Shown here: positions 127 through 3,866 of the stretch, piece by piece
How positions within the stretch are numbered: the stretch's first letter is position 1
Layout of the letters: the number at the start of each line of letters is the position of its first letter
Virus record (IMG/VR): IMGVR_UViG_3300049914_000047
Location: 1 to 40,353 of that record
DNA: 40,353 bases
Source: a virus
Lineage: Duplodnaviria > Caudoviricetes
Strand: one strand, 5' to 3'
Notes under the pieces: model-generated
Database searches by the model: none
The model's input: only the letters and a program-made list of their open reading frames with translations
Told to the model about the DNA's origin: nothing
Made by a program: the position numbers and the translations under genes

Positions 127-327
127 CGATTTGTTGCTAAGCTGACTTGCCATAACAAAAGGAGATAGATATGGATTTTAATAAAGAGTTGTTTGATGAA
201 TTTGTGAAAGAGTTTGTAGATAACGACGCAGGTGTAATTAGAAACCAATACCCTGATGGGATTTTTAATTGGTTTAGAAATAAACAAAACTTGGGCGGGC
301 AAGTTCAGCTTGAGCAACGTGTTAGCC
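121..327 (-). repeat. attC-like site 1 (207 bp)
   Basis: AACTAAC-GATTT-GTTGCTAAGCTGACTTGCC ... GGCAAG[T]TCAGCTT[G]AGCAAC-GT-GTTAGCC. Confidence 0.85.
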
Positions 328-482
328 AGCAACTTGCATCTGTGATTACACACTTACGGGATAGTTTTGAAAAAGCCCAAAAGTTATTAGACGACAAAGA
401 AATAGGAATGCAATTGGCTTGCACCGAATTATTCATAGCAAATTCAGAGGCAAGAGAGATGTTAAGCAAGTTGTCGGGCTAA
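171..482 (+). CDS. Hypothetical cassette protein, starts in attC1 loop
   Basis: AGGAG SD before the ATG; stop lies within GGCTAAC. Confidence 0.75.
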   Translation: MDFNKELFDEFVKEFVDNDAGVIRNQYPDGIFNWFRNKQNLGGQVQLEQRVSQQLASVITHLRDSFEKAQKLLDDKEIGMQLACTELFIANSEAREMLSKLSG

Positions 483-606
483 CGGATGGCAACTAAGCTG
501 CCATACACAAAATTTGAATAAGGAATAATACCGATGCTAATAGACATATCAAAGATACGGAAATTTGTAGTATGCTCATTTGGTCAGGTTGAGTTGCTTG
601 TTAGGC
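477..606 (-). repeat. attC-like site 2 (130 bp)
   Basis: GGCTAAC-GGATG-GCAACTAAGCTGCCA ... TGG[T]CAGGTT[G]AGTTGC-TT-GTTAGGC. Confidence 0.85.
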
Positions 607-779
607 GGCAAAAATTATTCTTCAACCTATACCGAAAATACAGATGCCTTCGAGCGCCGCAATTTATTATCAGAAAAGTGTTATGGAAAGTAACCGACCC
701 AAAAACATTGCTACAGACGGACGATTATCATATACGATTAGCAATAGCTGTCGAGTGTATGAAATTTTTGTCCGCCTAA
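534..779 (+). CDS. Hypothetical cassette protein, starts in attC2 loop
   Basis: AAGGA upstream; stop lies within GCCTAAC. Confidence 0.65.
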   Translation: MLIDISKIRKFVVCSFGQVELLVRRQKLFFNLYRKYRCLRAPQFIIRKVLWKVTDPKTLLQTDDYHIRLAIAVECMKFLSA

Positions 780-900
780 CGGTGGTGCTAAGTGGTGCAT
801 GTAGAAAGTTGAATAATGACAAATGCCGAATCTAAGAAAATACAACCAATACGGAATAACGAAGAAAGCTCTAAGCATCCACTTGAGCACTTGGTTAGGC
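774..900 (-). repeat. attC-like site 3 (127 bp)
   Basis: GCCTAAC-GGTG-GTGCTAAGTGGTGC ... GCA[T]CCACTT[G]AGCAC-TTG-GTTAGGC. Confidence 0.9.
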
Positions 901-1628
901 GGCACGGCAGTCTTTTTTCTGGTATTGGTGGCTTTGATCTTGCGGCACAATGGATAGGATGGGAAAATGTTTTTCAAGTTGAGATTGATGAATTTGCACA
1001 AAAGGTTTTAGAAAAGAATTTCCCTAATGCAAAACGATACCGAGACATACGAGAATTTGATGGAACACAATACCGAGGAAACATTGGAATTCTTTCCGGT
1101 GGATTTCCCTGTCAGCCATTTAGCATGGCAGGACAAAGGAAGGGTGAAAAGGATAACCGTTTCCTCTGGGGAGAAATGCTTAGAGTTATTAGAGAAACAC
1201 AGCCCCAATTTATTGTTGGCGAAAATGTTAATGGTATTACAAACTTGGACAATGGCAGAACACTTGAGAAGATACTACTTAGTTTGGAAGATGAGGGCTA
1301 TTTTTCGGAAATATTTCGTATTCCAGCTTGTGCCATTGGAGCTTGGCATAAAAGGGAACGAATATGGATATGTGCCCACGCCAAGAGCTTCAGATGGAGC
1401 ATTCAGAGGAAAGATGAAATTAGAGACACACAAGAAACCTTCACCAATAGGAGATATAAATTTGAATCACTGGATGGCGATCACATTGGACAGCTTAGTA
1501 ACTGCGGAACACTGCGAATTGATAATGGGATACCCAATAGGGTGGACAGAATTAAAGCATTAGGAAATGCAATTGTGCCGCAAGTGGTTTTTGAAATATT
1601 CAAAGCCATAGAAGCCGTGTCCGCCTAA
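816..1628 (+). CDS. dcm: DNA (cytosine-5)-methyltransferase
   Basis: Motifs I (LFSGIGG), IV (GGFPCQPFS), VI (ENV), VIII (HKRERIW) and X (RIKALGNAIV). Confidence 0.95.
   Translation: MTNAESKKIQPIRNNEESSKHPLEHLVRRHGSLFSGIGGFDLAAQWIGWENVFQVEIDEFAQKVLEKNFPNAKRYRDIREFDGTQYRGNIGILSGGFPCQPFSMAGQRKGEKDNRFLWGEMLRVIRETQPQFIVGENVNGITNLDNGRTLEKILLSLEDEGYFSEIFRIPACAIGAWHKRERIWICAHAKSFRWSIQRKDEIRDTQETFTNRRYKFESLDGDHIGQLSNCGTLRIDNGIPNRVDRIKALGNAIVPQVVFEIFKAIEAVSA
1027..1563 (+). CDS. Overlapping alternative-frame ORF, putative small (beta) subunit of the C5-MTase; true start uncertain
   Basis: Carries PTPRASD and a motif IX-like HCELIMGYPIGWT that the main frame lacks. Confidence 0.6.
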   Translation: MQNDTETYENLMEHNTEETLEFFPVDFPVSHLAWQDKGRVKRITVSSGEKCLELLEKHSPNLLLAKMLMVLQTWTMAEHLRRYYLVWKMRAIFRKYFVFQLVPLELGIKGNEYGYVPTPRASDGAFRGKMKLETHKKPSPIGDINLNHWMAITLDSLVTAEHCELIMGYPIGWTELKH

Positions 1629-1750
1629 CGGCAAGCATAAATTGCGCACGATGAAAAGCTGAATAATATTAAATGACGAATCCAAAAACACATAAACAAT
1701 ACGGCGTATTGCACTTGGCTGGTTGCGTCAATTTGATGCACTGGTTAGGC
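1623..1750 (-). repeat. attC-like site 4 (128 bp)
   Basis: GCCTAAC-GGCAA-GCATAAATTGCGCA ... TGCG[T]CAATTT[G]ATGC-ACTG-GTTAGGC. Confidence 0.9.
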
Positions 1751-1774
1751 AGTGCGCCACATCGGGAGAATTGA

Positions 1775-1960
1775 GTGGAATTTACATCAAGTATTCCTTT
1801 GTGCGAATTTTGTGGACAGTACCACCCGCACCAAACTTGCTGGAGAATAAAAGAAATTGAATACCACCAAAACGGAATGATAAAACGAGTGGTACTACAT
1901 GAACCAAAAACTTTAATTTTAACAGAAGAAACAAAGAAAGAGGGTGGCGCATCTGCCTAA
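1775..1960 (+). CDS. Small putative Zn-binding cassette protein
   Basis: CxxC..H....C motif; GGGAG upstream of the GTG; stop lies within GCCTAAC. Confidence 0.7.
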   Translation: MEFTSSIPLCEFCGQYHPHQTCWRIKEIEYHQNGMIKRVVLHEPKTLILTEETKKEGGASA

Positions 1961-2324
1961 CGGTAGCCCTAAGCTGCGGCAACGAAATGCTTGAATGATA
2001 TTATAATAAGGTTTGTTGTGTTTGCATCTAATTTTAATCGCCTTGTGGCGAGGAGAAATTATGGAAGAAACGAAATGCACCAATTGTGGAAAGATGTCGG
2101 TTTTGACATATAGTAATTGGAAACAAAGGAATAAGATTACCGATAAAATGGAAACTATAATAAAAAAGACAGAAAATTTGTGCCCAATGTGTTTTAAGAA
2201 AAGAACCGGAATGAACGGAATATTTTCAAAATAGCCACAAGGCGAAACATCAAATGCGCGAACACAACAAACACAACGAATAATGCACAATGCCCATCCC
2301 GTCAACTTGAGGGCATGGTTAGGC
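1955..2324 (-). repeat. attC-like site 5 (370 bp, gene inside loop)
   Basis: GCCTAAC-GGTA-GCCCTAAGCTGCGG ... CCG[T]CAACTT[G]AGGGC-ATG-GTTAGGC. Confidence 0.8.
2061..2234 (+). CDS. Small Zn-ribbon-like protein nested in attC5 loop
   Basis: AGGAG SD then ATG at 2061; CTNC...CPMC. Confidence 0.7.
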   Translation: MEETKCTNCGKMSVLTYSNWKQRNKITDKMETIIKKTENLCPMCFKKRTGMNGIFSK

Positions 2325-2352
2325 AGTGCGCCACTTTTAGAAAGGATGGTAT

Positions 2353-2541
2353 ATGCCCAAGATAAAGTTTGCTAAAAAAGATGTAGATAAAGGATATGGA
2401 ATCATTTTACATGCAGGGTGCGTGGTCTATACTGGACTTGACGACACATATATAATACCAGAGGAAAGTTTGGGAAAGTTGAGAATTGAAAAAATAGATT
2501 TTACAATATTGCCTATTAATCATGACGGCGCATCTGCCTAA
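2353..2541 (+). CDS. Hypothetical cassette protein
   Basis: AAAGGA SD; stop lies within GCCTAAC. Confidence 0.7.
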   Translation: MPKIKFAKKDVDKGYGIILHAGCVVYTGLDDTYIIPEESLGKLRIEKIDFTILPINHDGASA

Positions 2542-2664
2542 CGGTTGCGGCTAAGATGCGAATAACTAAACTTTAAATTTAACGAAAGGACGATGCAATG
2601 AAAAATACAAAGAAACGGATTAGCCACAAACGCTCAAATCGTCATCTTGAGCCGCTGGTTAGCC
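2536..2664 (-). repeat. attC-like site 6 (129 bp)
   Basis: GCCTAAC-GGTT-GCGGCTAAGATGCGA ... TCG[T]CATCTT[G]AGCCGC-TG-GTTAGCC. Confidence 0.9.
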
Positions 2665-2915
2665 AGCCGCCGCATAGCATTACATTGATGTTGACAAGCG
2701 AACAAGAGAAGCAATTAACACCTCTATTCAAATATGCAATGAAAAGTTACGATAAGGGACAATACGGAATAATATTAGCGCAACCCAAGCGACCCTCGAT
2801 TTTCGGGACACCACTTGAGCCGATGCTTGTATGCGCGTTTGTTGAAGAACCGTATGCCAGTAAAATGATAAAACTGAGCCGAAAAGCGGGAACACTTGTG
2901 CGGCGGTCTGGCTAA
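2598..2915 (+). CDS. Hypothetical cassette protein, starts in attC6 loop
   Basis: AAAGGA SD; stop lies within GGCTAAC. Confidence 0.7.
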   Translation: MKNTKKRISHKRSNRHLEPLVSQPPHSITLMLTSEQEKQLTPLFKYAMKSYDKGQYGIILAQPKRPSIFGTPLEPMLVCAFVEEPYASKMIKLSRKAGTLVRRSG

Positions 2916-3036
2916 CGGTGGGCGTAAGCTGTGCCGAACGATAACCAGAAGAACGTAATGACTCGATTCTATAAAAAATATAACAAACGGAATTTTGCAA
3001 TGAGCTATGGGCATCAGCTTGACGCCATGGTTGTAT
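2910..3036 (-). repeat. attC-like site 7 (127 bp)
   Basis: GGCTAAC-GGTG-GGCGTAAGCTGTGCC ... GGCA[T]CAGCTT[G]ACGCC-ATG-GTTGTAT. Confidence 0.85.
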
Positions 3037-3071
3037 TGCATTTAATCTATTCTTGAAAGGCGGTTGCACCA

Positions 3072-3464
3072 ATGGAAAACAAGTTTAAGGTGTGGGATAA
3101 AAAATTGAATGTGATGTGGCAGGAAATAGAACTGACAAAACTATTAAGCTATCTGATATTCCAGATTATGCCGAACGCGGACGCTTACCTTGCATTGAAA
3201 GACCACTTTACCGAAATGGTATGGCTAAGATGGGTCGGACTGAAAGACAAAACCGGAACAGAGATATACGAGGGCGACATACTTGATATAGGTAAGGCAA
3301 CACCGGCAACATTGGAATGGTGCGAGGGTGCGTATGAATTGCTCATAGAAGGAAAATTTGAATGTCGTTTATGTGTCCAAGACATTAAGGAAGTCAAAAT
3401 TATCGGTAACATATACGCCAACCCAGAGCTTTTGGTGCAACCGCCTGTATCAAATGTTAAATGA
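3072..3464 (+). CDS. YopX family protein
   Basis: KFKVWDK ... GLKDKTGTEIYEGDIL ... IIGNIYANPELL signature. Confidence 0.9.
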   Translation: MENKFKVWDKKLNVMWQEIELTKLLSYLIFQIMPNADAYLALKDHFTEMVWLRWVGLKDKTGTEIYEGDILDIGKATPATLEWCEGAYELLIEGKFECRLCVQDIKEVKIIGNIYANPELLVQPPVSNVK

Positions 3465-3466
3465 CA

Positions 3467-3485
3467 ATACAACTACTGATTAGAC
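3467..3485 (-). other. attI/attG-like simple recombination site closing the array
   Basis: The - strand reads GTCTAAT-CAGTA-GTTGTAT (inverse-core-like box, 5-nt spacer, core). No attC stem follows it. Confidence 0.5.
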
Positions 3486-3500
3486 TGCGGGAATAAATAT

Positions 3501-3866
3501 ATGCCTAAAATAAAACGTAATGAGCAGTTTGTCAAAATAGAGAAAAAGATATGCACTTATTTATTGGAACAGAAAAAATCACCGAGCAAAGAACCGATTC
3601 ACTTTGACGAATTTAAGGATTTAAAAGAATTAACACGACAATTGGCAACTGAAAAGGGAATGTCTTTGTCTGAATGGTTCAGATGGCTTAATTATCGTTA
3701 TTTATCGGTACACGGATATTTGCCAATTGAGATTGAAAAGAGAAAGATTGAATATTTAAGTGATGAAGATTTAGAGATTAATAAGACAACTATCATGTAT
3801 CATAATAAATCAAAGTCAAACACAAGTTGTCAACAGAAAGGAATAGAGAATGGTAATATATCTTAG
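3501..3866 (+). CDS. Hypothetical protein
   Basis: 121-aa ORF with no recognisable motif. Confidence 0.6.
   Translation: MPKIKRNEQFVKIEKKICTYLLEQKKSPSKEPIHFDEFKDLKELTRQLATEKGMSLSEWFRWLNYRYLSVHGYLPIEIEKRKIEYLSDEDLEINKTTIMYHNKSKSNTSCQQKGIENGNIS

Follow-up and report, generated by a model that had tools for sequence, protein, structure and literature searches.

Pairing between the two ends of an integron cassette has already been published, over 9-11 bp (PMC2727003), and attC sites usually span 57-141 bp, a descriptive range (PMC5027507). When VchIntIA binds the Vibrio cholerae repeat (VCR), the outer T is reported to be bound in cis, lodged between P232, H240 and H241, and to draw the catalytic tyrosine out of place (PMC2727003, PMC5027507, PMC3053210), and binding of this base, T24, is reported to disable the bound monomer (PMC2727003, PMC5027507). 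The monomer-disabling model for T23/24 rests on one crystal structure together with modest mutant effects, and de novo cassette formation is described as largely unknown (PMC5371416). Here, we compare these systems with an attC array in the whole virus record IMGVR_UViG_3300049914_000047 (40,353 nt, 58% complete; hereafter the window), a tailed-phage contig with terminase, portal and capsid genes. The array comprises seven classical attC sites and an attI at 3471-3484, and each of its cassette bodies ends in an inverted repeat that is interrupted by a single unpaired base at a fixed position.

The bulged inverted repeat at phage cassette ends

The seven bodies start with GTT at 321, 600, 894, 1744, 2318, 2658 and 3030 and end with AAC at 483, 780, 1629, 1961, 2542, 2916 and 3473, respectively. 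Their ends pair over 9 nt (8/9 in cassette 1), followed by one extra base on the 3' arm and a second stem of 8, 8, 6, 8, 6, 8 and 7 bp in cassettes 1 to 7, giving a total end pairing of 15-17 bases. On the + strand, left and right arms lie at 321-337 and 466-483 in cassette 1 (bulge T474), 600-616 and 763-780 in cassette 2 (T771), 894-908 and 1614-1629 in cassette 3 (T1620), 1744-1760 and 1944-1961 in cassette 4 (T1952), 2318-2332 and 2527-2542 in cassette 5 (T2533), 2658-2674 and 2899-2916 in cassette 6 (T2907), and 3030-3045 and 3457-3473 in cassette 7 (A3464). The left arm of cassette 5 is near-identical to that of cassette 4. An eighth T occupies the bulge position in a cassette that the start of the contig truncates and whose 3' end (118-127, + strand) consists of T118 and the 9-nt R' arm, the partner arm lying outside the window.

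Scanning bulge positions 3-15 on both arms returned the register after 9 nt on the 3' arm as the best in 7/7 cassettes, and when the interiors were shuffled 20,000 times for each cassette, just 1-11 of the shuffles gave at least 6 bp there. Among the 49 non-cognate pairings, at least 6 bp was obtained only for cassette 4 with cassette 5 (two cells, near-identical ends), all others yielding 0-3 bp.

We searched viral, metagenome and genome collections for relatives, employing patterns placed inside attC and outside the outer stem. Pairing of bodies relied on the 7-nt R box, with one mismatch allowed and the rest dropped, and merging of near-duplicates left 88 non-host bodies. Seventy-six of these sit on 23 loci with backwards genes and 12 on 6 loci scored as canonical by an orientation rule that misfiles at least one phage duplicate (L288). 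Of the 76 bodies on backwards arrays, 43 have the bulge and at least 5/6 bp beyond it, and in 6 the second stem is shorter; 13 show the plain extension and 14 lack both. The window itself contributes six of the 76, its cassette 1 having been missed, so that the full bulge occurs outside the window in 37/70 bodies on backwards arrays and at 16/22 loci, some of which share contigs or cassettes and are non-independent. None of the 12 bodies on the six canonical-scored loci had a bulge. A good bulge of any kind was present in 42 bodies, and in 39 of them it lay on the 3' arm following 9 bp. The second stem is cognate-specific (43/49 cognate versus 114/2,352 non-cognate pairings), with 35 distinct 6-mers among 49 cassettes, while the bulged base is T in 37/49, A in 10 and C in 2.

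These data bear on the view that the bulge is a neutral relic of cassette making, left by reused founder ends or by a swap of the L-half and R-half roles after a gene had entered an attC loop. Cassettes 4 and 5 indeed have common ends around unrelated genes, and genes do sit in attC loops. The 35 different second stems, each matching its own partner, speak against it, as do R halves that are closer to host R halves than to L halves and two homologous cassettes with proteins of 53% identity, one plain (L280) and one bulged (L289), that differ in both bulge state and R box. We consider such an origin very unlikely. The second stems are built from each cassette's own gene-side sequence, which bears on how cassettes are made.

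A 14-nt attI core follows the last AAC (3471-3484, minus strand). Of 31 Bacteroidota genomes searched, 8 contain it, and 2/12 loci, in two Bacteroidota genomes, have the identical site immediately upstream of the 5' end of intI; by this match, the attI of the window is of host type. The Bacteroidota metagenome-assembled genome (MAG) G002 contains a full IntI (428 bits, above the cut-off) and 165 attC-arm matches, and its arrays have the same attC arm family, attI core and R-box families as the window. Another contig of this MAG, L283, is phage-like and combines bulged cassettes with the same attI. Eighty cassettes from G002 and G001 and 43 from contigs of six further relatives, sampled from part of each array, served as the host control. 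Gene orientation is canonical in 120/123 of them, their attC sites are longer (about 145-190 nt), and their ends pair over a median of 14 contiguous bp with no bulge. A position-10 bulge was present in 0/123 of these host cassettes of the same attC family, whereas 49/88 non-host bodies had a full or short one; the Fisher p-values (< 1e-17) overstate the contrast because the cassettes are related. Host ends mostly read G^C at the bulge step (57/80), so that the phage ends resemble host ends with one base inserted. In a second control of 127 bodies from 33 viral-contig loci, which included other backwards arrays, median pairing was 9 bp, with 0/127 full bulges and one short bulge. For clinical class 1 cassettes, the survey covered aadA1's attC only.

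Judging from these comparisons of sequence, the bulged extension is a real, selected-looking and phage-specific variant of attC. The sequence-only reading had reported a terminal inverted repeat with a bulge after 9 nt at every body, and this was borne out in 7/7 cassettes, in the best of all tested registers and rarely in shuffles. Its further claim of a structure beyond the standard attC holds for the bulged second stem, present in 0/127 ordinary and 0/123 host bodies, but not for the extension as such, given the published 9-11 bp (PMC2727003) and the host median of 14 bp.

Symmetry with T23 and predicted folds

All seven attC sites possess conserved AAC/GTT R'/R'' boxes, and in each of them G16 and T23 are extrahelical on a single arm and separated by 6 bp, in the register of aadA1 of plasmid NR1. 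With the definitions of PMC5027507, this register identifies the + strand as the recombining bottom strand. A cassette thus consists of an attC and the body on its right, and its genes run backwards compared with textbook cassettes. Both the strand assignment and the attI that ends the array had been overlooked in the sequence-only reading.

Along the bottom strand, from 5' to 3', the L half consists of T23, nine paired bases (G16 set aside) and the spacer, and the R half of the bulged base, nine paired bases ending in AAC and the spacer. This two-fold symmetry is exact in 7/7 window sites, and the nine-base spacing is also found in aadA1's L half. The bulge thus mirrors T23 across the two-fold axis; a distance of 9 bp separates it from the crossover triplet, and it is on the strand cleaved by the R-box monomer. 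It lies in an R[T]C context in 36/49 cassettes, compared with 75/76 for T23, and the T is retained in 12 cassettes whose gene ends earlier.

Four of the ten A bulges, A3464 among them, form part of a stop codon, and across the family 41/65 scored genes begin within attC on the folding strand. Both observations would suit a bulge that acts on RNA or against hairpin nucleases by interrupting the long stem that brackets each gene on the mRNA-sense bottom strand. This idea leaves the fixed mirror position and the T preference unexplained; moreover, host cassettes have perfect stems of the same length on the strand of their own mRNA, and the bulge is missing from other backwards phage arrays. We therefore regard it as highly improbable. 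The absence of the bulge from other backwards phage arrays also rules out backwards gene orientation as its cause. C-terminal Ala-Ala is a degron, and avoidance of it was likewise ruled out, as 16/49 bulges lie in A[T]C, which does not encode Ala, and the T persists past the gene stop.

Folds were predicted with DNA parameters for sites in circle form, in array form and as three-part array folds. Circularised in silico, all seven sites are predicted to fold completely, with a second-stem probability of 0.99-1.00 and the bulge unpaired at 0.74-1.00. The hairpin with an unpaired central spacer and a variable terminal loop is predicted for 7/7 sites in circle form and 5/7 in array form. As part of the array, the R box is predicted to form at 5/7 attC sites and the second stem at attC5 only, while attC4 and attC7 hardly fold (P 0.03). 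The full structure predicted for attC5 in the array arises because cassettes 4 and 5 have common ends. In 3/6 three-part array folds, the body ends are predicted to pair with one another across the gene. The extension of the attC stem by these ends in an excised circle, as proposed from the sequence, thus agrees with the predictions for all seven sites. The accompanying proposal that the full site exists only in the circle is upheld in part: the second stem is missing from most array folds, but it forms at attC5, and body ends pair in half of the three-part folds.

The same reading had suggested that the fully paired circle form, with its extension and third extrahelical base, could bias the reaction towards integration; on this view, the added elements would raise the affinity of IntI for the circle form and direct traffic to attI. 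Complete predicted folding in circle form next to the nearly unfolded attC4 and attC7 of the array would favour this, as would bulged cassettes found beside attI. Published work also describes extrahelical bases as key for binding and a stable stem around the second one as favouring recombination (PMC3053210, PMC7439510). Removal of the bulge is predicted to stabilise the duplex by 2.9 kcal/mol, so the bulge does not stabilise the circle; host cassettes gain the same folding benefit from a perfect stem, and when a base is bound at that geometry, the one effect known is that the monomer becomes inactive. The bias towards integration is not supported as it was stated, since the bulge comes at a cost and its T23-mirroring position points to damping. 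An integration-boosting role appears unlikely.

As binding of T23/24 is reported to disable the bound monomer, the likeliest role of the bulge is a leaky brake on R-box cleavage. We put this forward tentatively, as a possibility of somewhat less than even chance, in the form of a brake on R-box cutting by a borrowed host IntI. The phage cassettes would probably be mobilised in trans by the host IntI, behind a host-type attI. The 6-8 bp second stem is predicted to keep the base extrahelical whenever cassette ends pair, whether within an excised circle, over a short gene in the array or with a similar neighbour. By symmetry, the IntI monomer at the R box may then accommodate this base in the same pocket that receives T23/24 at the L box. 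The catalytic tyrosine would be pulled away at the R box, which would damp cleavage but not abolish it, and damped cleavage may result in less cassette loss and turnover in a replicating phage. In favour of a brake are the exact symmetry with T23, the fixed position of the bulge beside a variable but cognate-specific second stem, the prevalence of T in an R[T]C context and its retention past gene stops, the absence of the bulge from host cassettes, the host-type attI, and the co-occurrence of a full IntI and bulged phage-like cassettes in G002. Host IntI also retains the H240/H241 pair of the T pocket and W219.

Several observations weigh against a brake. In the host enzyme, I replaces P232. 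T24 is reported to be dispensable, with a 10-fold effect on deletion and none on integration (PMC2727003). Twelve of 49 bulged bases are other than T, and 13/76 phage cassettes have the plain extension. Bulged cassettes adjoin attI in the window, L283 and L290, and hence such cassettes still move; one with an A bulge adjoins the attI of L314 and is missing from L326, AA|C being the exact boundary. Among the relatives, at least 5 bp of the second stem is rebuilt at only 1/36 array junctions and at least 2 bp at 4/36, so that a brake would act mainly on circles and body-loop folds. Furthermore, Bacteroidota are only the presumed hosts of the window, and on a contig that is 58% complete a phage recombinase could be missing from view.

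With slightly more reserve than for the brake itself, we suggest that phages may have redesigned the host attC into a two-fold symmetric, doubly locked site, in which a copy of the T23 off-switch on the side that is cut would let the phage shuffle genes with the host integrase at a lower recombination rate of its own. The split between phage and host within one attC family suggests that phages tune a borrowed host recombinase. Bulged sites constitute a natural symmetry experiment on the T23/24 model. If the brake is real, they would represent a control element that phages have evolved for a host recombinase and would offer a natural system in which to test how IntI selects the attacking monomer; they would also yield a design rule for tuning synthetic attC sites.

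Array layout and neighbouring genes

The attC sites lie on the minus strand, with the + strand as the folding bottom strand. They comprise attC1 (125-323, 199 nt; T23 at 305, G16 at 312), which contains the start of an open reading frame (ORF) at 171-482; attC2 (481-602; T23 at 584, G16 at 591), within which ORF 534-779 begins; attC3 (778-896; T23 at 878, G16 at 885); attC4 (1627-1746; T23 at 1728, G16 at 1735); attC5 (1959-2320, 362 nt; T23 at 2302, G16 at 2309); attC6 (2540-2660; T23 at 2642, G16 at 2649), within which ORF 2598-2915 begins; and attC7 (2914-3032; T23 at 3014, G16 at 3021). Apart from attC1 and attC5, all measure 119-122 nt. Our attC detector, which relies on AAC/GTT triplets and the inner stem only, recovered six of the seven together with two low-scoring matches elsewhere in the window, and attC5 once the length limit had been raised. 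The loop of attC5 contains a whole gene, a 58-aa ORF at 2058-2234, within long stems (z-score -5.5); L271, L272, L286 and L331 also have long attC sites, the overall range being 200-430 nt. Four window genes begin within an attC. One is a C5 DNA methyltransferase (PF00145; 816-1628, + strand), which begins within attC3 and ends at the TAA of the R box. The cargo further includes a YopX-family ORF (3072-3464, + strand), with the bulged A3464 as the final base of its TGA stop. The 80 loci with methyltransferase relatives yielded no arrays.

With at least two attC sites and no neighbouring integron integrase, the array is a cluster of attC sites lacking integron integrases (CALIN). Compared with a complete integron, an attI heads the array, but a small unrelated ORF occupies the slot of intI, and rather than pointing away from attI under the control of the cassette promoter (Pc), all cassette genes face attI on the bottom strand. 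A profile search returned no match to PF00589 or any tyrosine recombinase in the 40,353-nt window of this partial contig. Promoter and terminator scans of the window were at chance level, and Rfam gave zero matches within it.

Short Xer-like tyrosine recombinases without the IntI insertion are absent beside the window's array and present downstream of the array in four related contigs (L172:1998-2939, L297:3739-4563, L329:4474-5406 and, partially, L286:4-168). There they occupy the intI position, preceded by different attI-like ends. The small + strand ORF in the window's intI slot (3501-3866) has homologues behind attI in two other phage lineages (L359:13244-13600 and L314:2681-3064; identity 54% and 33%), with no tailed-phage genes in the part of L359 listed. 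A search for its relatives by back-translation returned none, and the homologues were recognised by visual inspection of related loci. The Atlas model of the ORF product is of low confidence (pLDDT 0.49), which leaves a ribbon-helix-helix fold as only a lead. A phage factor, either such a recombinase or the small ribbon-helix-helix-like protein, might read the symmetric bulges and thereby mark cassettes for phage traffic, in keeping with the restriction of the bulge to phages and the retention of the small ORF in three lineages. This seems rather improbable to us, considering the missing PF00589 match, the host type of the window's attI and the presence of both bulged and plain cassettes in arrays with and without a recombinase. 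Inspection of bulged-cassette position relative to attI gave no trend.

Sixty-six percent of the words of this stretch are present in a second public run from a different study, which argues against an assembly artefact. Record 1 of run X1 is a contig, similar in depth, that agrees with the window as far as the AAC at 125-127, beyond which a different, attI-like sequence follows; this suggests the same cassette in another array context. Two joints seen in one sequencing run were not used, as they had low depth and short sides and probably stem from related elements.

Further arrays came to light during the searches. A first family pattern returned 54 stretches, nearly all chance matches, with the partner arm only in L130, L170 and L172; it was discarded. 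Bodies at 984 in L264 and at 6907 in L273 (minus-strand numbering) have both the position-10 bulge and a second extra base, the latter after 7 bp in the opposite arm. A 4.7 kb contig in a Babeliales MAG (L282) has a bulged backwards array and is probably a mis-binned phage contig. Large chromosomal arrays of uncultured Bacteroidota and relatives (contigs C42, C53, C59, C60 and C64 of G002; G005, G008, G012, G017 and G060) contain 50-165 attC-arm matches and have unusually long perfect end pairing of up to 17 bp. In the viral arrays L371, L383, L388, L402, L410, L423 and L441, attC is about 52 nt long and genes are often on the bottom strand, without a bulge.

Comparison with described integrons

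The attC sites of aadA1 and aadA7 and the VCR (PMC2727003, PMC5027507) share with the window the AAC/GTT R box, the unpaired spacer, G16 and a T23 six base pairs on, as well as the bottom-strand fold, cassette-end pairing to 9 bp and, probably, the AA|C crossover. The window alone has a second stem of 6-8 bp beyond a fixed bulge that mirrors T23. Its genes also differ in lying on the bottom strand and beginning inside attC, and its loops of up to about 360 nt hold a gene. Engineered coding attC sites (Nivina 2020, PMC7439510) likewise have a protein-encoding attC arm; these are synthetic, and the available part of that article describes no outer bulge. In the literature searched, with most subscription journals outside the search, we found no description of a bulged outer stem.

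Phage CALINs (Qi et al. 2023, PMC9892861) are, like the window, integrase-less phage attC arrays with methyltransferases, and one Shewanella prophage CALIN has its own attI, as the window does. The available text on them describes neither an outer stem or bulge nor genes that begin in attC, and it draws no contrast with host cassettes. The Bacteroidota chromosomal superintegron of G002 and its relatives has the same attC arm family, attI core and R-box families and long end pairing. It differs from the window in its canonical genes (120/123), longer attC sites, lack of the bulge (0/123) and possession of intI. Taken together, the extension and phage CALINs were already known, and what is new in this array is the bulge.

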